Source of the DNA: a virus
Lineage: Duplodnaviria > Caudoviricetes
Direction: 5' to 3' (one strand)
DNA: 58,586 nucleotides
IMG/VR virus record: IMGVR_UViG_3300036770_003690
Span: 1-58,586 of that record
Shown: positions 46,800 to 52,064 of the stretch, in pieces
Layout: every line of letters begins with the position of its first letter
How positions within the stretch are numbered: the first letter of the stretch is position 1
Made by a program: the position numbers and the translations under genes
Notes under the pieces: model-generated
What the model was told of the DNA's origin: nothing
Seen by the model: the letters and a program-made list of their open reading frames with translations, nothing else
Database searches by the model: none

Positions 46800-47012
46800 T
46801 CAAACTTCAACTACTTCAAGATCCTCATAAAGATAATCAATTAGCATTTCGTAATCGTCTTCAGGATCACCTGAAAATACAACTCCATTTTGCTCATAAT
46901 AACGTTTTACTTTTTTGTAAAGTTTTGGATTTTTCACATCAAGGTAAAATTCTCCATTAGCAGCAGCACGAAGAGTATTTACGTCTTTTTTAAATTTTGA
47001 AGTAAGAGTCAT
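46800..47012 (-). CDS. Hypothetical protein
   Basis: 70-aa ORF preceded by TTGACT-N17-TATACT (47036-47064) and AAGGA. Confidence 0.75.
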   Translation of the reverse strand: MTLTSKFKKDVNTLRAAANGEFYLDVKNPKLYKKVKRYYEQNGVVFSGDPEDDYEMLIDYLYEDLEVVEV

Positions 47013-47074
47013 TTCCTTAATTGGTTTACCTGAATAGTATAGGTCTTTGAGAGGTAAAAGTCAAGTGGTCCAGA

Positions 47075-47260
47075 TTAGCAACCGTCTTCGTGCTCTGTGT
47101 GAATGCGAATAATGTCATCGAGTTCTTCGCAATTATTACCACAAGGAACAAGAACTGCTGTTCCATACTCACCTTCAATCATAAATGACTCACCATTTTC
47201 TACTCTTTCAATAAGTTCATCAAAATATATTTGAAATTGCTCTACTGTAAAACTTTCCAT
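47075..47260 (-). CDS. Phd/YefM-like antitoxin-fold protein
   Basis: TVEQFQ..FDELIERVENGESFMI....GTAVLVP resembles the Phd/YefM N-terminal pattern. Confidence 0.6.
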   Translation of the reverse strand: MESFTVEQFQIYFDELIERVENGESFMIEGEYGTAVLVPCGNNCEELDDIIRIHTEHEDGC

Positions 47261-47316
47261 TTATCAATTTTTCTAATAAGGTTTTAATAATTTATAAAAG
47301 TTTTGTTTTTAAAATA

Positions 47317-47390
47317 TCGGGCATAAAGGATTTGAACCTTTGACCTTCCCGCCCCAAACGGGACGCGCTACCAAACTGCGCTAATGCCCG
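47317..47390 (-). tRNA. tRNA-Pro(TGG)
   Basis: Cloverleaf; TCCCG-TT TGG GG-CGGGA. Confidence 0.93.
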
Positions 47391-47400
47391 GTATATTATA

Positions 47401-47440
47401 TATCATATCAAATGCTACATTATCATATCAAATGCTACAT
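47401..47440. repeat. Exact 20-bp tandem duplication within a promoter
   Basis: tatcatatcaaatgctacat x2; overlaps minus-strand TTGACA-N17-TATGAT (47422-47450). Confidence 0.9.
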
Positions 47441-47446
47441 TTGATG

Positions 47447-47641
47447 TCAAGTGCCATTGATAAACTTTTCATATTTATTTTGAACCTCAGAATCTACCTG
47501 ACTTAGGTTTCCCAAAGGAGGCATCCAATTTTCTTTGATTACATAATCAGCAAACCTATAAGAATAGGTTGATATTGGTATTCCTAATCTGCGAAGAGAA
47601 CTTAAAATAAATGCTCTTTGCTGAAGAATATTACTATCCAT
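47447..47641 (-). CDS. Hypothetical protein
   Basis: 64-aa ORF overlapping the upstream small ORF. Confidence 0.6.
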   Translation of the reverse strand: MDSNILQQRAFILSSLRRLGIPISTYSYRFADYVIKENWMPPLGNLSQVDSEVQNKYEKFINGT

Positions 47642-47780
47642 TGCTTAAAAATTTATTCATAGGATCTTTTTTGGATTTTACAATTTCACAAGCTCTTTTG
47701 TAAAAGGCATTATCAAGATTTCCAGATTCTTCAAAAATTTGTTTTATTTTTACCCAGTTGGCGTAAGTATGATCGTCCAT
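47634..47780 (-). CDS. Small hypothetical protein (48 aa), not in ORF track
   Basis: MDDHTYANWVKIKQIFEESGNLDNAFYKRACEIVNPKKDPMNKFLSNG*. Confidence 0.65.
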   Translation of the reverse strand: MDDHTYANWVKIKQIFEESGNLDNAFYKRACEIVKSKKDPMNKFLSNG

Positions 47781-47893
47781 TGGGTTTTATTCGTAGATAT
47801 TATTATATAATAAATCTTATATTTTCAGTGTCAACAAAATATGTTCATTTTGTAACACTGTTGAAGAAATTATTAAATTAGTATCATATAAAA

Positions 47894-47976
47894 CGGAAAG
47901 AACAGGAATCGAACCTGCGAGGGTGTTATCCCCAGCCGCTTTCAAGGCGGTGTCCTCGACCAACCGGACTCTTTCC
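47894..47976 (-). tRNA. tRNA-Ser(TGA)
   Basis: CT TGA AA loop, long variable arm, G discriminator. Confidence 0.85.
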
Positions 47977-47987
47977 AATAAAAGTCC

Positions 47988-48248
47988 TCAACGGACTTCA
48001 AAATCTAAACGACGAACTTTACGTTGTCTTCTTGCCTCCTGCCACATAATATCCTCATTTGTAAGAATATTATTTTTTTGTTTTTTATTTGGAGAGTTTA
48101 GCATGACTATTTGAGATAGGTCAAGTGCAGTAATGTTAGTGTTGTTTCTTATAGTTGCCATATTAGGACAACCACAAGAAACTGTTTTTGCTGGACGACC
48201 TTCTATTTCTTTATTGCAAGATTTACATCTGATTCGTAAATTTTCCAT
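47988..48248 (-). CDS. Small Cys-rich (zinc-ribbon-like) protein
   Basis: CKSC...CGC motifs. Confidence 0.7.
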   Translation of the reverse strand: MENLRIRCKSCNKEIEGRPAKTVSCGCPNMATIRNNTNITALDLSQIVMLNSPNKKQKNNILTNEDIMWQEARRQRKVRRLDFEVR

Positions 48249-48279
48249 AATATTCTCATATTTTTCTAATTATTTAGAA

Positions 48280-48352
48280 CTGGGGTGGCAGGGATCGAAC
48301 CTGCGACCTAGATGTTAACAGCATCCCGCTACTACCGCTGAGCTACACCCCA
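48280..48352 (-). tRNA. tRNA-Asn(GTT)
   Basis: GGATG-CT GTT AA-CATCT. Confidence 0.9.
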
Positions 48353-48353
48353 T

Positions 48354-48428
48354 TGGGAGCGAAGGGTGGAATTGAACCACCTACCCGAAGCTTATGAGAC
48401 TTCTGTGCAACCGTTACACTTCTTCGCA
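48354..48428 (-). tRNA. tRNA with CAT anticodon (Met-type, 1:72 mismatch)
   Basis: GAAGT-CT CAT AA-GCTTC; encoded CCA. Confidence 0.8.
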
Positions 48429-48432
48429 GTGA

Positions 48433-48465
48433 GACAATCATAAAGTATATATACCAGATTGTCAA
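48433..48465 (-). promoter_or_regulatory. sigma70 promoter embedded in GACAATC-N17-GATTGTC inverted repeat
   Basis: TTGACA-N17-TATGAT. Confidence 0.75.
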
Positions 48466-48466
48466 G

Positions 48467-48538
48467 TGGGAGATACTGGAATCGAACCAGTGACTGCTTG
48501 CTTGTAAGGCAAGAACTCTACCGCTGAGTTAATCTCCC
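48467..48538 (-). tRNA. tRNA-Val(TAC)
   Basis: CTTGC-CT TAC AA-GCAAG. Confidence 0.93.
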
Positions 48539-48562
48539 GATAGGTGATCTCTCAACCATCTT

Positions 48563-48591
48563 ATAATACCCTATAAGATTTAATTTGTCAA
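48563..48591 (-). promoter_or_regulatory. sigma70-type promoter upstream of tRNA-Val
   Basis: TTGACA-N17-TATTAT. Confidence 0.7.
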
Positions 48592-48606
48592 GTCCTAAGA
48601 TGAAAA

Positions 48607-48684
48607 TGGCACTCTCTGCAGGATTTGAACCTGCGACTTCTTGGTTCGTAGCCAAGCACTCTATCCAGACTGAGTTAAGAGAGC
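48607..48684 (-). tRNA. tRNA-Arg(ACG)
   Basis: CTTGG-CT ACG AA-CCAAG; CCA encoded. Confidence 0.93.
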
Positions 48685-48687
48685 ACA

Positions 48688-48761
48688 TGCCCGTGATAGG
48701 AGTCGAACCTACACTGTATGGATTCTAAGTCCACCCTCTCTACCAATTGGAGTACACGGGC
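48688..48761 (-). tRNA. tRNA-Leu(TAG), short variable region
   Basis: GTGGA-CT TAG AA-TCCAT; 74 nt. Confidence 0.85.
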
Positions 48762-48766
48762 ATAGG

Positions 48767-48838
48767 CGAAGGGCCAGAGACTTGAACTCTGATCTTTGGT
48801 TTTGGAGACCAAGATGCTACCAATTGCACCAACCCAAC
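48767..48838 (-). tRNA. tRNA-Trp(CCA)
   Basis: TTGGT-CT CCA AA-ACCAA; two U-U mismatches in the acceptor stem. Confidence 0.82.
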
Positions 48839-48841
48839 ATT

Positions 48842-48918
48842 TGGTGTCCGTGAGAGGATTTGAACCTCCAACACCTACCCCCTCAAGGTAGTGCCTCTTC
48901 CAGTTGGGCTACACGGAC
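48842..48918 (-). tRNA. tRNA-Leu(GAG), short variable region
   Basis: CTACC-TT GAG GG-GGTAG; CCA encoded. Confidence 0.85.
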
Positions 48919-48992
48919 TGGCTGGGGAACTAGGAGTCGAACCTAGATAAACACGGTCAAAGCGTGGTGTCCTGCCTTTAGACGATTCCCCA
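48919..48992 (-). tRNA. tRNA-Gln(TTG)
   Basis: CT TTG AC loop; U1-A72; CCA encoded. Confidence 0.9.
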
Positions 48993-48993
48993 T

Positions 48994-49068
48994 TGGAGTT
49001 TCAGGTCGGAATCGAACCGACGATTAGAAGTTTTGCAGACTTCCGCCTTACCACTTGGCTACTGAAAC
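48994..49068 (-). tRNA. tRNA-Cys(GCA)
   Basis: GAAGT-CT GCA AA-ACTTC; U73; CCA encoded. Confidence 0.93.
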
Positions 49069-49071
49069 AAG

Positions 49072-49143
49072 AGCCCTCAATCGGATTTGAACCAACGACC
49101 TACTCATTACTAGTGAGTTGCTCTACCACTGAGCTATAAGGGC
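49072..49143 (-). tRNA. tRNA-Thr(AGT)
   Basis: ACTCA-CT AGT AA-TGAGT. Confidence 0.88.
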
Positions 49144-49145
49144 GG

Positions 49146-49217
49146 GGTGACGTGCGGGAATCGAACCCGCATACCTGGATTCACAAACCAGTTCCTTAAC
49201 CATTAGGATAACGACAC
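49146..49217 (-). tRNA. tRNA-His(GTG)
   Basis: TT GTG AA loop; C73; the -1 base is T, not G. Confidence 0.85.
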
Positions 49218-49219
49218 AG

Positions 49220-49291
49220 TGGCTGTGGGTGGATTTGAACCACCGACGACTTCCTTATGAGAGAAGTGTTCTACCCCTGAACTACACAACC
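49220..49291 (-). tRNA. tRNA with CAT anticodon (elongator Met or Ile2)
   Basis: CTTCT-CT CAT AA-GGAAG. Confidence 0.85.
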
Positions 49292-49377
49292 TGGCGGAAG
49301 ATGTTGGGATCGAACCAACGGAGGTTTTACCCTCACGGTTTAGCAAACCGCTGCATTAACCACTCTGCCAATCTTCC
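49292..49377 (-). tRNA. tRNA-Ser(GCT)
   Basis: GCGGT-TT GCT AA-ACCGT; long variable arm; CCA encoded. Confidence 0.93.
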
Positions 49378-49381
49378 AAGT

Positions 49382-49471
49382 AGGGAGAAGGTGGAATCGA
49401 ACCACCATTGCCAAGGGACGGAATCGAACCGTCTCTGATACCGTCGTACCCACCGTCCAAGGTGCTCTCCC
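49382..49471 (-). ncRNA. tRNA-like RNA with two T-arms and no anticodon loop
   Basis: Acceptor-like GGGAGAG/TTCTCCC; two GG-TTCGATT-CC arms; 4-nt loop at the anticodon-arm position. Confidence 0.65.
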
Positions 49472-49474
49472 AAG

Positions 49475-49546
49475 TGGAACCGACAAGATTTGAACTTGTG
49501 ACCGCTCGGTTATCAGCCGAGTGCTCTACCACTGAGCTACGGTTCC
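49475..49546 (-). tRNA. tRNA-Ile(GAT)
   Basis: CTCGG-CT GAT AA-CCGAG. Confidence 0.93.
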
Positions 49547-49549
49547 AAG

Positions 49550-49623
49550 AGGGAACAATCGGATTTGAACCGATAACACCTTGATCTTCAATCAAGTGCT
49601 CTACCAATTGGAGCTATGTTCCC
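49550..49623 (-). tRNA. tRNA-Phe(GAA)
   Basis: CTTGA-TT GAA GA-TCAAG. Confidence 0.92.
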
Positions 49624-49626
49624 GAA

Positions 49627-49700
49627 TCTGAGAGGCAGGATTTGAACCTGCGACCTGAGCGTTCCAAACACCCAGCTCTACCAAACTGAGCTACTCCCAG
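49627..49700 (-). tRNA. tRNA-Pro(TGG), second divergent copy with A37
   Basis: GGGTG-TT TGG AA-CGCTC; C1-G72, A73. Confidence 0.85.
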
Positions 49701-49703
49701 ATG

Positions 49704-49830
49704 ATGGAAGGGGTATCCCACAAGGTGATGATTTAAAATCATCGGGCAGAAATCCCTTCCCAATTCCAGTTATTACTACAACATTCTTCTGCAAACTGGC
49801 AACCTCTGAAGAATGCGTGGGATTTCTCCC
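49704..49830 (-). ncRNA. Structured inter-tRNA RNA with possible pseudoknot
   Basis: AGAAATCCC/GGGATTTCT, CATTCTTC/GAAGAATG, loop CCAGTT complementary to AACTGG, GATGATTT/AAATCATC. Confidence 0.6.
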
Positions 49831-49832
49831 AA

Positions 49833-49903
49833 TTGCTCCGACTGGAATCGAACCAGCGACCAACCCCTTCGACGGAGCTGCTCTACCACTGAGCTACAGA
49901 GCG
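49833..49903 (-). ncRNA. Atypical tRNA-like RNA, anticodon undetermined
   Basis: Normal D and T arms, C1:A72 mismatch, GCTCC-GTCGAA-GGGGT with a 6-nt loop. Confidence 0.65.
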
Positions 49904-49955
49904 GTTCAGTTTATCAATACTGCCCACACACAAAACTGAATAAGTGTAGGGACGA

Positions 49956-50027
49956 CGACCCTAACGGGATTTGAACCCGTGATAATACCGTGACAGGGTA
50001 TCGTGATGACCACTTCACTATAGGGTC
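49956..50027 (-). tRNA. tRNA-Asp(GTC)
   Basis: ATACC-CT GTC AC-GGTAT; G73. Confidence 0.92.
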
Positions 50028-50031
50028 AAGG

Positions 50032-50114
50032 TGGGAGGAACAGGATTTGAACCTGTGAAGGACAGAGCCGTCTGATTTACAGTCAGATTCCTTTAACCAC
50101 TCGGAAATCCTCCC
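50032..50114 (-). tRNA. tRNA-Tyr(GTA)
   Basis: TCTGA-CT GTA AA-TCAGA; long variable region. Confidence 0.92.
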
Positions 50115-50118
50115 ACGA

Positions 50119-50193
50119 TGGGACATCTGGGATTTGAACCCAGGACTAACCGATTAAAAGTCGGATACTCTGACCTGACTGAGTTAATGTCCC
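50119..50193 (-). tRNA. tRNA-Lys(TTT)
   Basis: CT TTT AA loop. Confidence 0.92.
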
Positions 50194-50232
50194 ATTAAAA
50201 ATGTAAAGTTATTATGTGTGGAAAATATTCAG

Positions 50233-50327
50233 TTGTCGATGTTCGGTGTGGTCTCTCGACCACTTGATTAGAATACCACCGTTTGGTCTCTTGGGGAGTA
50301 GGTGGTGGACACTTGTGAAACCGTCAC
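50233..50327 (-). promoter_or_regulatory. Putative promoter lacking -35 (palindrome + extended -10), followed by a hairpin and boxA-like element
   Basis: GTGACGGTT-N4-AAGTGTCCAC, N29, TATTCT preceded by TGG; GTGGTC-GAGA-GACCAC; GAACATCGACAA. Confidence 0.5.
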
Positions 50328-50336
50328 AAGGCAAAG

Positions 50337-50370
50337 AAAAAGGGGAGGAAACTTTGAGTTTCTCTCCCCT
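50337..50370 (-). terminator. Intrinsic terminator of the putative attenuator
   Basis: AGGGGAG-A-GAAAC-TCAAA-GTTTC-CTCCCCT-TTTTCTTT. Confidence 0.8.
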
Positions 50371-50395
50371 GTGTGTTTTGCTTTTATGGTTGGTC

Positions 50396-50497
50396 TTACA
50401 TTTGACCTACCATACACGCAAACAGGGGAGTACCCTCAATATGCCAATAACGGCAATCAAGGAGACTAAACTGTTTTGTGGGCATTTGGTAGGTCAT
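50396..50497 (-). CDS. Putative 33-aa attenuator leader peptide
   Basis: MTYQMPTKQFSLLDCRYWHIEGTPLFACMVGQM*; between promoter (50519-50549) and terminator; overlaps the antiterminator arm. Confidence 0.65.
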   Translation of the reverse strand: MTYQMPTKQFSLLDCRYWHIEGTPLFACMVGQM

Positions 50498-50518
50498 TGT
50501 TCTAATCAATTATGTGTT

Positions 50519-50549
50519 TATTTATAAGACTTTTTTTTCAAAAAGTCAA
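50519..50549 (-). promoter_or_regulatory. Composite sigma70-type / T4 late-type promoter upstream of the leader ORF
   Basis: TTGACT-N17-TATAAA, where the -10 is part of TATAAATA; GACTTTTT/AAAAAGTC inverted repeat. Confidence 0.7.
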
Positions 50550-50550
50550 G

Positions 50551-50622
50551 AGCGGGGTATCGGAATCGAACCGACGACATCTAACTTGGAAGGATAGCGT
50601 TCTACCGCTGAACTAACCCCGC
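50551..50622 (-). tRNA. tRNA-Gly(TCC)
   Basis: CT TCC AA loop; U73. Confidence 0.92.
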
Positions 50623-50628
50623 ATTTAA

Positions 50629-50661
50629 GACAATCTTACATTATATAGTAGAGATTGTCAA
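50629..50661 (-). promoter_or_regulatory. sigma70 promoter in GACAATC-N17-GATTGTC inverted repeat
   Basis: TTGACA-N17-TAAGAT. Confidence 0.7.
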
Positions 50662-50662
50662 G

Positions 50663-50733
50663 TGGAGAATAGGAGAATCGAACTCCTAATAAGTGCTTGC
50701 AAAGCACCCGTTATACCGTTTAACTAATTCCCC
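50663..50733 (-). tRNA. tRNA-Ala(TGC)
   Basis: GGTGC-TT TGC AA-GCACT; G3:U70. Confidence 0.93.
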
Positions 50734-50810
50734 TGGCGTCTCAGGAGGGACTTGAACCCCCGACCAACTGCTTAGAAGGCAGATGCTCTATCCAACTGAG
50801 CTACTGAGAC
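50734..50810 (-). tRNA. tRNA-Arg(TCT)
   Basis: CT TCT AA loop; CCA encoded. Confidence 0.93.
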
Positions 50811-50821
50811 AAGAGATGACT

Positions 50822-50856
50822 TTGACAATCATAAGTTATTTAACCTAGATTGTCAA
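50822..50856 (-). promoter_or_regulatory. sigma70 promoter in TTGACAATC-N17-GATTGTCAA inverted repeat
   Basis: TTGACA-N17-TATGAT; TAAATA within the spacer. Confidence 0.75.
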
Positions 50857-50857
50857 G

Positions 50858-50942
50858 TAGGAACGGAGAGACTTGAACTCTCACGGGTTATTCGCCCAAC
50901 GGATTTTAAGTCCGGTGTGTCTACCAATTCCACCACGCTCCC
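50858..50942 (-). tRNA. tRNA-Leu(TAA), no intron
   Basis: CT TAA AA loop; long variable arm. Confidence 0.92.
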
Positions 50943-50965
50943 ATAAAAAGACCAAAAATGGTCAG

Positions 50966-51039
50966 TGGAAATGCCGGGGCTTGAACCCGGAACCCCAGAC
51001 TTATAAGGTCTGTGCTCTGACCAATTGAGCTACATTTCC
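50966..51039 (-). tRNA. tRNA-Ile(TAT)
   Basis: CAGAC-CT TAT AA-GTCTG. Confidence 0.88.
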
Positions 51040-51046
51040 GAAGTGA

Positions 51047-51079
51047 GACAATCATAAGGCATAACCCTGAGATTGTCAA
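51047..51079 (-). promoter_or_regulatory. sigma70 promoter in GACAATC-N17-GATTGTC inverted repeat
   Basis: TTGACA-N17-TATGAT. Confidence 0.75.
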
Positions 51080-51080
51080 G

Positions 51081-51160
51081 TGCCCCCAGTCGGATTTGAA
51101 CCGACAAGCCGAAGCGGTTGATTTTGAGTCAACTGTGTTTACCAGTTTCACCACAGGGGC
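51081..51160 (-). tRNA. tRNA-Leu(CAA)
   Basis: GTTGA-CT CAA AA-TCAAC; variable arm with UUCG loop. Confidence 0.9.
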
Positions 51161-51187
51161 AATAAAGACAATTATAATCAATTGTCA

Positions 51188-51259
51188 AGCCCCCGACTGG
51201 ATTTGAACCAGCAACCTTCTCATTACAAGTGAGATGCACTACCGTTGTGCTACAGAGGC
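51188..51259 (-). tRNA. tRNA-Thr(TGT)
   Basis: TCTCA-CT TGT AA-TGAGA. Confidence 0.92.
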
Positions 51260-51262
51260 GTA

Positions 51263-51328
51263 TTTTCAAGATTCAAGTGATCCTTCCGATCACTTATTTA
51301 GAATACCACTCTCAAGGTCAAGAGTCAA
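51263..51328 (-). promoter_or_regulatory. Promoter at the head of the tRNA array with hairpin and boxA-like sequence
   Basis: TTGACT-N17-TATTCT then TAAATA; AAGTGATC-GGAAG-GATCACTT; GAATCTTGAAAA. Confidence 0.6.
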
Positions 51329-51793
51329 GTCCTTTGTACCAGATTCAGAAGTGGCAGGACAATCTGAAACCCAAGGAGAACATAATCTCATTTCTCCCCC
51401 AAGTGATTTACACTCATCAGAATAACATACAGAACTATCTATATTGTTTTCCAAATAACGAGGTGGAGATATTCTAACAATTCCATCATCTCCTGTCAAT
51501 CTTTCATAACTACCGATTGCCTCATCAACTTCTCTACGAACTTTGAATTCAAGTAATTTTGGGTCATTATTAATTCTTTCGTTGAGTTGCCTATCAATCT
51601 CATTCAAAACATTATTCTCATCAGGTAAGTCAAACTTAATCCCCTTCCTGAGTTCGTTGTAGAACTTCAAAAGGTCTTCCTGACTGATACCACACCTTAC
51701 GGTAAGAAAAGCAATCCCAGAGGCAATTAGAGCAGCAATTAGAGACCTTTTAGGAGACAGTCTGAAGCTGACTAAGAATTCAGGTATCCTCAT
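51290..51793 (-). CDS. Hypothetical protein with N-terminal hydrophobic segment and C-terminal Cys cluster
   Basis: SLIAALIASGIAFLTVRC; CYSDEC...LCSPWVSDC. Confidence 0.7.
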   Translation of the reverse strand: MRIPEFLVSFRLSPKRSLIAALIASGIAFLTVRCGISQEDLLKFYNELRKGIKFDLPDENNVLNEIDRQLNERINNDPKLLEFKVRREVDEAIGSYERLTGDDGIVRISPPRYLENNIDSSVCYSDECKSLGGEMRLCSPWVSDCPATSESGTKDLTLDLESGILNK

Positions 51794-52064
51794 AATCCCT
51801 AAGTGCTTTCTCTATTGTTCTATCTATACGAAAACGAAGTAATTCGTCATCTTTGATAATATAATCGTTTAGAATATCAACACCAAACTTTAATTGTATT
51901 TCATCAATTAGATTGAAAAGAAACTTACGGTCTACGAATGGAAGTAGGGATACAACATCTACAGTTCCTTTCAGAAGAAATCCAAGTCTTACATAATGAA
52001 AGATGGTTCTTTTTTCTGGTCCGTGTTTAAATTCAAAAATATTAAACTTAGATTTCTTGGTCAT
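51780..52064 (-). CDS. Hypothetical protein
   Basis: 94-aa ORF overlapping both neighbours. Confidence 0.65.
   Translation of the reverse strand: MTKKSKFNIFEFKHGPEKRTIFHYVRLGFLLKGTVDVVSLLPFVDRKFLFNLIDEIQLKFGVDILNDYIIKDDELLRFRIDRTIEKALRDYEDT

Follow-up and report, generated by a model that had tools for sequence, protein, structure and literature searches.

Within the 58,586-nucleotide (nt) stretch of DNA analysed here (IMG/VR virus record IMGVR_UViG_3300036770_003690; Duplodnaviria, Caudoviricetes), hereafter the window, the spacer between a tRNA-Gly gene (50550-50622) and a tRNA-Lys gene (50117-50194) carries an element that we interpret as a ribosome-dependent, leader-peptide transcription attenuator, predicted to gate the entry of transcription from a phage promoter into the main tRNA block. 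On the comparative sequence evidence given below, we put the probability of this interpretation at roughly 0.6. Coordinates are positions of the window, and the element is read on the minus strand, where 50549 to 50332 hold a promoter, a 33-codon open reading frame (ORF), an intrinsic terminator and three helices that exclude one another. The element sits within a cluster of 29 tRNA genes, 5' of a block of 18, and the records closest to the window are those of cyanomyoviruses. The original prediction, made from the letters of the window, had described the helix arms, the ORF at 50497-50396, the terminator and a stop codon in an apical loop, and we found all of them in place, as follows.

50519-50549, minus strand: leader promoter, with a -35-like TTGACT (50544-50549), a 17-nt spacer and TATAAATA (50519-50526)
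50396-50497, minus strand: leader ORF, 33 codons and a stop (TAA, 50396-50398)
50471-50497, minus strand: region 1, the 5' strand of the anti-antiterminator, made up of the start codon with codons 2-4 (50487-50497) and the AAACAG of codons 8-9 (50471-50476)
50437-50459, minus strand: mid hairpin over the DCRYWHI codons, (U)GAUUGCCG-UUAU-UGGCA(U)AUU(G)
50403-50430, minus strand: region 2, CTCCCCTGTTTGC (50418-50430) and TATGGTAGGTCA (50403-50414), whose partner is region 1 or region 3
50364-50395, minus strand: region 3, the 3' strand of the antiterminator, GACC-A-ACCATA, GCAAA and ACAGGGGAG
50332-50370, minus strand: intrinsic terminator, AGGGGAG-A-GAAAC, loop TCAAA and GTTTC-CTCCCCT (50370-50341), then the T-rich tail TTTTTCTTT

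The product of the leader ORF reads MTYQMPTKQFSLLDCRYWHIEGTPLFACMVGQM, then stop, and uses 19 different amino acids, Asn being absent. The start codon belongs to a helix whose arms are TGACCTACCA (50487-50496) and TGGTAGGTCA (50403-50412). The antiterminator joins CTCCCCTGT (50422-50430) to ACAGGGGAG (50364-50372), with further pairings of TTTGC with GCAAA and of TATGGTAGGTC with GACCAACCATA, and its apical loop contains the leader stop codon. The final 7 nt of region 3 are also the 5' arm of the terminator, whose G+C-rich stem of 11 to 12 base pairs (bp) is followed by a run of T.

We propose that polymerase starting at the TATAAATA promoter would make a leader of ~170 nt with two alternative folds. 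In the first, pairing of region 1 (the start codon with codons 2-4, and codons 8-9) with region 2 (codons 23-33) would allow the terminator to form, and transcription would stop. In the second, region 2 would pair with region 3 in a long antiterminator that consumes the 5' arm of the terminator, giving read-through into tRNA-Lys and beyond. An untranslated leader would be expected to terminate, as would one whose ribosome has reached the stop codon and covers region 2. A ribosome held in the first ~13 codons would cover region 1, such that region 2 could capture region 3 before the 3' arm of the terminator is made.

Homologues were gathered by two pattern scans of viral contigs, both of which give lower bounds counted over the matches listed. 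A degenerate core-motif scan yielded at least 118 viral contigs; those listed comprised 116 homologues and 2 chance matches, and 114 of the 116 homologues had complete ORFs, with one more truncated by the end of its contig. The second scan, which was independent of the core motif and used the pattern of promoter, Shine-Dalgarno (SD) sequence and ATG, yielded at least 120 contigs, 92 of them already known and 28 without the exact core; in 26 of these 28 added loci, an ORF of 32-35 codons is followed by the same terminator. The element is carried by more than 140 environmental phage contigs. One added locus (L185) is a decayed or rearranged copy with a normal start (MSYPMAPKQFTILDCRY...), followed by a 42-codon frame with no terminator downstream. 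The sole match of a blastn search against 50,697 phage records was Synechococcus phage S-PM2, the only homologue-bearing contig with a known host; its copy lies between tRNA-Arg(tct) and tRNA-Lys, unannotated, with an antisense coding sequence (CDS) annotated over it. A tblastn search with the 33-residue peptide against the same records gave two irrelevant matches with an E of 4 and missed S-PM2 too, and is hence uninformative on distribution. The core-motif scan of 185,579 prokaryote genomes returned 62 matches, about the number expected by chance, of which 61 were unrelated and one was a homologue on a 1-kb contig; because there is just this one, we consider the element phage-borne.

The position of the element is equally stable. 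Among 118 homologous loci listed, with the window and S-PM2 included, 113 had downstream tRNAs, the first of which was Lys(ttt) in 109, at a median distance of 246 nt, and all 1725 tRNAs of the 118 loci share the strand of the leader. The architecture compared in the original prediction to the trp and his attenuators is conserved: the frame is kept, the competing helices covary, and the element precedes the main tRNA block in nearly every relative.

The leader ORF measures 31-34 codons in 114 listed viral loci, in S-PM2 and in the window, and begins with ATG in 70 of 70 distinct ORFs. That the frame would be conserved in relatives had been anticipated, and the alignment of 78 distinct homologous sequences bears this out: gap runs within the ORF are of 3, 3, 6 and 9 nt, and those between the stop and the terminator are of 1, 2, 3, 5, 6 and 7 nt. 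Exceptions are L030, with an altered C terminus, and a 1-nt gap located beyond the earlier stop of one clade. In L198 and L189, where hardly any of the peptide is shared, the frame is open nonetheless. Residues 2 and 31 change together, Ser/UCU occurring with Arg/AGA and Thr/ACY with Gly/GGU. Since these N- and C-terminal residues covary through base pairing (UCU:AGA versus ACY:GGU), selection appears to keep the RNA and not the peptide; likewise, Lys8-Gln9 is conserved because AAACAG pairs with CUGUUU. Each conserved stretch of the peptide coincides with a strand of a helix, and distant leaders share little peptide sequence. The conserved tunnel motif of arrest peptides was not found, as the core peptide varies while the RNA hairpin stays.

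Helix statistics were computed on the same 78 aligned sequences. Because the homologues are related to each other, shuffle controls overstate significance, and slid registers together with changes on both sides of a pair are a better guide. In the antiterminator, 92.9% of the cells of 23 pairs were paired, with compensatory changes in 8 pairs and 35 cells; 0 of 500 shuffles reached the observed value, and slid registers gave 37-60%. The terminator was paired at 96.6%, with 7 of 11 pairs compensatory. The start-codon helix (columns 25-35:119-129) reached 79.5%, with 6 of 11 pairs compensatory, compared with 17-59% in slid registers and 42.9% at a register one column off, which serves as a negative control. 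Folding revealed an additional helix between AAACAG (Lys8-Gln9) and CUGUUU (Leu25-Phe26), paired at 98.1%, one pair of which is AU in 69 sequences and GC in 8. Region 1:2 as a whole was 90.9% paired versus 27-44% in slid registers, and over all helices the slid-register controls ranged from 17 to 74%. Compensatory changes are therefore present in all three helices, as had been expected of the relatives. Alignment column 173 covaries with both of its alternative partners (UA in 66 and CG in 5 sequences; AU in 64 and GC in 6).

The folds of the leader were computed at equilibrium, with stretches masked to mimic a ribosome, and truncated transcripts were folded for 5 sequences. For the free leader of the window (-63.5 kcal/mol), the fold contained region 1:2 and the mid hairpin together with the terminator. 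In unconstrained folds of the 78 sequences, the terminator formed in 78, region 1:2 in 76 and the antiterminator in 0. When the transcript ended before the 3' arm of the terminator, the antiterminator accompanied the mid hairpin in the fold of minimum free energy of all 5 sequences; the mid hairpin is present in both alternative folds. Masking from the SD sequence to codon 11 left region 1:2 in 0 of the 78 and gave the antiterminator in 28, including the window (13 bp). A mask from codon 27 to 12 nt beyond the stop left the terminator in 78 of 78. Masking of codons 13-22 left region 1:2 in 74 of 78 sequences and the terminator in 75 of 78; as both persist, a ribosome stalled at codons 13-22 would not be expected to cause read-through, and the proposal that all of codons 1-20 serve as sensors is not borne out. 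In these models, read-through would be favoured only by a ribosome delayed early in the ORF, with a sensing zone of roughly codons 1-13.

The stretch between regions 1 and 2 encodes a core, GAT TGC CGY TAT TGG CAT ATY, that all 70 distinct motif-bearing ORFs share. Although the search pattern permitted variation, none of the 70 has a synonymous change at D, C, Y or H. RNAalifold placed a 9-bp hairpin over the core, with 100% pairing in the 78 sequences, the two variable third positions remaining paired. The motif-independent scan uncovered variant cores (DCRDWHI, DCREWHI, DCQYWHI, DCLYWHI, DMRYWHI, DCGRTWQHI, DYREDIAKM, DYRWYIVG and DPISWDCKE), and the mid hairpin is retained in all 17 distinct intact variant leaders, by way of loop changes, G-to-A changes that keep the pair, or wholly different complementary strands; the aberrant L185 forms a different, shorter stem. 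To judge from this comparison, which supplies covariation beyond the reach of the motif-bearing set, the DCRYWHI core is an RNA hairpin and not a set of sensor codons. Because it is conserved as a hairpin, 7 of the 15 amino acids said to mirror the tRNA block drop out as evidence for codon sensing. The hairpin, present in both modelled folds, may act as a pause or timing element.

The leaders are rich in different amino acids, with 18-20 kinds in 31-35 codons. The mean is 18.45 kinds per leader, and out of 79 peptides 40 contain 19 kinds and 5 the full 20; the highly divergent leader L198 retains all 20. By comparison, the other two frames gave 14.1 and 14.2 and shuffled open frames 15.6, and only 0.42% of random 33-residue windows from the proteins of the window had at least 19 different amino acids. 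Because so many kinds of amino acid occur in the leaders and no control codon is repeated, we infer that they report the overall speed of decoding, or the supply of many aminoacyl-tRNAs. The output of phage tRNAs would then be under feedback, with slow decoding giving more tRNA and fast decoding less. That T4-like cyanophages carry such an "all-amino-acid" leader attenuator, in which the speed of decoding over nearly every amino acid sets the transcription of their own tRNAs, is a tentative extension of the attenuator reading, with the odds somewhat against it.

The tRNA block that the attenuator would control is the following.

48607-50194, minus strand: downstream tRNA block, Lys, Tyr, Asp, an odd tRNA, Pro, Phe, Ile, Ser, Ser, Met, His, Thr, Cys, Gln, Leu, Trp, Leu, Arg(acg)

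ARAGORN identified 17 canonical tRNAs and one odd tRNA in the block, which corrects an earlier count of 16 canonical ones. Between them, the 17 canonical tRNAs serve 15 amino acids (K Y D P F I S M H T C Q L W R). As first described, tRNAs for Asn, Val, Ala and Gly are found outside this block, and sigma-70-like sites are present at 48591, 48465 and 50661. The usual order in relatives is Lys-Tyr-Asp-Glu-(Pro-Phe)-Ile-Ser-Met-His..., ending at Arg(acg). Codons 1-20 of the window's leader use exactly the 15 amino acids of the block, as the original prediction had stressed, and of 200,000 random 20-residue windows drawn from 35 long ORFs of the window, 0 equalled this set and 0.04% fell within it, with the reservation that codon 20 was picked as the limit post hoc. 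In relatives, 1-6 leader amino acids have no tRNA in the block, and Asn, which occurs in 33 of 53 leaders, never has one there.

We compared the composition of leader and block across the family. The Jaccard index was 0.707 versus 0.692 in within-clade permutations, 0 of 5000 of which reached the observed value; for the N-terminal part of the leader alone it was 0.447 versus 0.436 (p 0.005). These data point to an association of leader composition with block content beyond clade structure, of small effect. Independent contrasts were then calculated on a tree built from the DNA between the two traits. Pro codons in the N-terminal part of the leader and tRNA-Pro in the block changed together in 5.8 of 8 contrasts, with 0 opposite changes (median p 0.031), and Phe leaned the same way, weakly (3.2 of 9 contrasts, 0.1 opposite). 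The leader Trp, Met and Ser residues never change. The idea that the codon set tracks tRNA content is upheld in part, by the within-clade association (p 0.005 or lower) and by Pro. The tracking of Pro and the large number of amino-acid kinds in the leaders are two weaker signals that outlast the exact match.

Turning to the promoter, of 72 distinct upstream regions 71 have TATAAATA at 27-30 nt 5' of the ATG; a -35 with at least 5 of 6 matches accompanies it in 45 of those 71, and the other 26 have the late motif without a -35. According to PMC2984593, TATAAATA/NATAAATA is the late-promoter motif of T4 and S-PM2 (NATAAATA in S-PM2), and overlapping early and late promoters are described there for S-PM2. 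The leader promoter contains the sole TATAAATA within the window's tRNA cluster; the other tRNA promoters of the cluster resemble sigma-70 promoters. In seven loci (L005, L013, L025, L052, L059, L079 and L091), an insertion of ~520 nt lies between tRNA-Arg(tct) and the leader, with the -35 lost and TATAAATA kept. The spacer of the leader promoter (50528-50547, minus strand) also includes an A/T-rich inverted repeat, GACTTTTT/AAAAAGTC, which in S-PM2 is GAGTTT/AAACTC with both arms changed together; it could be an operator, or the 3'-end hairpin of transcripts from the upstream tRNA.

Across the tRNA cluster (47000-52000, minus strand) we counted 26 sigma-70-like sites versus 10.3 expected, which split the cluster into small units. 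Near-consensus sites (TTGACA-17-TATGAT and similar) are at 51499, 51079, 50856, 48591, 48465, 47834 and 47450, and the 18-tRNA block from Lys to Arg(acg) has no site that matches at 11 of 12 positions. A promoter-like site precedes the block.

50211-50239, minus strand: candidate internal promoter, TCGACA-17-CATAAT, 10 of 12 matches, ending 17 nt before tRNA-Lys

In relatives, the -10-like hexamer is mostly 2-3 nt from the 5' end of tRNA-Lys, or missing, and the spacing is workable only in the window. A function of this internal promoter beyond the window is doubtful on these alignments.

A number of observations weigh against the attenuator reading. First, with the SD sequence to codon 11 masked, the terminator remains the equilibrium fold in 55 of 78 sequences; because it does so even with region 1 masked, the switch would have to be kinetic. 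Second, the AGG 9 nt 5' of the ATG, nearly invariant in the alignment, is missing in the window and its nearest clade, which agrees with the earlier remark that no clear SD sequence is present, and the window's start codon is inside a 10-bp helix. Third, clustered regulatory codons were not found: with no run of control codons, the sensed signal cannot be read from the sequence. Fourth, the match between leader and block is exact in 1 of 56 distinct combinations, that of the window alone, and inexact in the other 55, and Thr, Tyr and Glu show no tracking of block tRNAs in the independent contrasts, contrary to what had been foreseen. Fifth, the candidate internal promoter at 50211-50239 could drive the window's block independently. 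Sixth, there are exceptions within the family, L109 (1 of 116) having its ATG out of frame and L185 being aberrant. Lastly, RNA runs X15, X16, X17 and X19 were compared as contigs at 85% likeness, and contigs cannot show transcript ends. One 193-nt contig of a relative from the RNA library X19 (15 mismatches) spans 50337-50477; it shows presence in an RNA library and nothing more. The remaining RNA-contig cover falls on tRNAs, and 50232-50292 is uncovered, an absence that is not evidential in contigs. The 193-nt contig is the sole RNA evidence.

A rival reading is a self-contained small gene or small RNA that would produce a short stable RNA and/or a trans-acting micropeptide, with helices that control only its own translation or stability, for example by occluding the start codon, and a block transcribed from elsewhere. 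In favour of this, the unit has its own promoter and a strong terminator, a promoter-like site before tRNA-Lys, a start codon sequestered in the free fold, and the 193-nt contig over a relative's ORF and terminator. Elsewhere, an attenuator RNA once released, or a leader peptide, can have effects in trans, rnTrpL and peTrpL being examples. A plain gene, however, needs no antiterminator, which here serves only to compete for the 5' arm of the terminator and covaries with it. The peptide is unconserved where the RNA permits change, with N- and C-terminal residues that covary through pairing, the position before tRNA-Lys is fixed (109 of 113 listed loci), and the geometry of the internal promoter is unworkable in most relatives. 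We consider such a gene unlikely.

The strict form of the original prediction held that every codon from 1 to 20 is a sensor for a tRNA of the block and that the leader is a backup switch against tRNA-cleaving host defences. In its favour are the exact 15/15 match in the window, the identity of the first downstream gene, tRNA-Lys, with an invariant Lys codon 8, the tracking of Pro and the within-clade association of composition; in addition, phage tRNAs are reported to counter tRNA-targeting defences (PMC10264068 and PMC11555353). The match stands for the window and is not reached in the 200,000 random windows, but it is unique among the 56 combinations, and seven of its residues are explained by the hairpin. 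The DCRYWHI codons vary in 28 of 120 listed leaders of the motif-independent scan, and masking them leaves the antiterminator unfreed. Lys codon 8 is fixed also by the AAACAG:CUGUUU pairing, Asn occurs in leaders (33 of 53) with no block tRNA to sense, and in most relatives the block Ser(gct) does not decode TCT, the usual Ser codon at position 2. A codon-by-codon sensor with this defence role is accordingly improbable.

In the mid hairpin, the bases of loop and bulge that stay unpaired do not vary across the 78 core-motif leaders. The needs of pairing do not account for this invariance, which could indicate factor-dependent antitermination: a protein or an RNA, for instance a tRNA, would bind the mid hairpin or the antiterminator, and the ORF would be secondary. 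Protein-bound hairpins control terminators elsewhere, as with the BglG/LicT RAT, PyrR, TRAP and lambda boxB. Yet a switch worked by a factor alone needs neither the conserved frame and length of the ORF nor the conserved stop codon in the antiterminator loop, and loop sequences differ among the variant leaders. An Rfam scan of 47000-52000 with E up to 1 yielded only tRNAs and weak tRNA-like matches, with none in 50195-50549, and the T-box covariance model had no match there in the same scan. We regard this mode of control as improbable too. Finally, an antisense gene, proposed from a 106-codon open frame (50207-50527, plus strand) over the spacer where S-PM2p160 is annotated in S-PM2, is open across the mid-leader in 77 of 77 relatives and would accommodate indels of 3n as either strand does, but was rejected and has next to no chance of being right, as its length varies from 47 to 161 codons without conserved ends, in S-PM2 it runs antisense through the tRNA-Arg gene, and indels of 1, 2, 5 and 7 nt between the leader stop and the terminator would break it. 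A long open frame antisense to the leader is also found in L001 (2782-3138, minus strand), and S-PM2p160 is probably a mis-annotation that hides the leader.

Beyond the terminator, the spacer contains further structured sequence.

50240-50331, minus strand: post-terminator spacer, with hairpins TTGTGA/TCACAA, CCACC/GGTGG and GTGGTC-GAGA-GACCAC (GAGA tetraloop)

The three hairpins are conserved in sequence, with little covariation in the 32 sequences folded, and would be expected only in read-through RNA. S-PM2 has a counterpart, GGTGGG...CCCACC, at the same position. In some relatives, the spacer between the terminator and tRNA-Lys has ~90 extra nt with more hairpins, and in four it has an insertion of ~480 nt.

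ARAGORN called 29 tRNA genes in the window, all on the minus strand, from 47317 to 51259; the flanking genes are nrdA, nrdB and sugar-modification genes, on the same strand throughout. The odd tRNA of the block (49833-49903, minus strand) has a 6-nt anticodon loop, is reported by ARAGORN as "anticodon cg, Arg|Ser" and scores 46.5 bits with the Rfam tRNA model; its homologues are conserved in L030 (cg) and L087 (ta). The window is without any canonical tRNA-Glu. We examined whether the odd tRNA is a tRNA-Glu in decay, in which case the mirror would have reached codon 21, and rejected this, as it forms a separate conserved family and occurs beside a normal tRNA-Glu in L030. A second class of odd tRNA lies between tRNA-Ile and tRNA-Ser in L009 and L046 (ARAGORN "???(gc)"); it is identical in both contigs and carries a 12-nt insertion in the D-arm region relative to other aligned tRNAs. 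A tRNA-Sec-like Rfam match of 42.9 bits, under the gathering score of 47 and with no ARAGORN call, is located at 47894-47977 (minus strand), in the gap from tRNA-Pro (47317-47390) to tRNA-Asn (48280-48352) and adjoining a conserved ORF of 86 residues (47988-48248, phrog_8074). Phage tRNAs with a wobble A other than Arg(acg) are Thr(agt) in the window (49071-49143, minus strand) and Leu(aag), Val(aac) and His(atg) in relatives.

The purpose of phage tRNA genes has been argued for decades, and the control of their expression is almost unexplored. Among the proposed roles (PMC10264068 and PMC11555353) are codon compensation, making good the loss of degraded host tRNAs and evasion of tRNA-targeting defences. 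If the attenuator reading is right, a phage would set its tRNA supply by measuring decoding itself. Should the all-amino-acid version hold, the element would be without precedent among known attenuators, both in controlling tRNA genes and in being built to sense the tRNA pool as a whole and not one amino acid. It would be a feedback, driven by demand, on translation machinery that the virus itself encodes, and could also respond to tRNA depletion caused by host defences. Ribosome-mediated attenuation would then extend to viruses, to RNA-gene targets and to leaders that sample 18-20 amino acids. The question is testable with a reporter of ~170 nt, and the element is present in the cultured pair S-PM2 and Synechococcus WH7803. 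The element would escape automatic annotation of tRNA regions in cyanophages, and S-PM2 carries a doubtful antisense CDS in its place. Full-text literature searches outside subscription papers and supplements gave no published description of the element, and neither did passages of PMC10690425 and of PMC5931967, an RNA-seq study of S-PM2 infection.

Several known systems resemble the element in part. The overlapping early and late promoters of T4-like cyanophages (PMC2984593) share with it the joining of a sigma-70-like -35 to a NATAAATA/TATAAATA late motif in TTGACT-17-TATAAATA; this likeness is confined to the promoter and does not concern the attenuator.

T-box riboswitches, like the proposed switch, let the state of tRNA choose between terminator and antiterminator before genes of the translation apparatus, but their ligand is uncharged tRNA itself, bound directly, and they lack a leader ORF. 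The bmrB leader of bmrCD, the toiL leader of topAI and the erm and cat leaders are comparable as generic detectors of slowed elongation that drive downstream genes; they differ in responding to antibiotics, in serving resistance or stress genes and, for some, in acting through translation or Rho and not through an intrinsic terminator. To our knowledge, no generic-stalling leader of this type has been found before tRNA genes or in a phage. In pheST of E. coli, ribosome-mediated attenuation likewise feeds the state of decoding back on the decoding machinery; it senses Phe codons and controls an aminoacyl-tRNA synthetase, whereas the phage leader is unbiased and precedes up to 18 tRNA genes.

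The closest parallel is with the trp, his, leu, thr, ilvGMEDA and pheA attenuators of enterobacteria, which also consist of a short leader ORF with exclusive 1:2, 2:3 and 3:4 pairings. In both, region 1 lies within the ORF, a ribosome at the stop codon blocks region 2, and the predicted outcomes are the same. In contrast to these systems, the phage leader has 18-20 kinds of amino acid in place of a codon run for one or a few, targets tRNA genes and not biosynthetic genes, is viral with a T4-type late-promoter motif, has a constant hairpin between regions 1 and 2, and includes the start codon in region 1. As read from its sequence, the element has the structure that defines a leader-peptide attenuator, without the clustered regulatory codons and with tRNA genes as its target, and we assign it to no described family.

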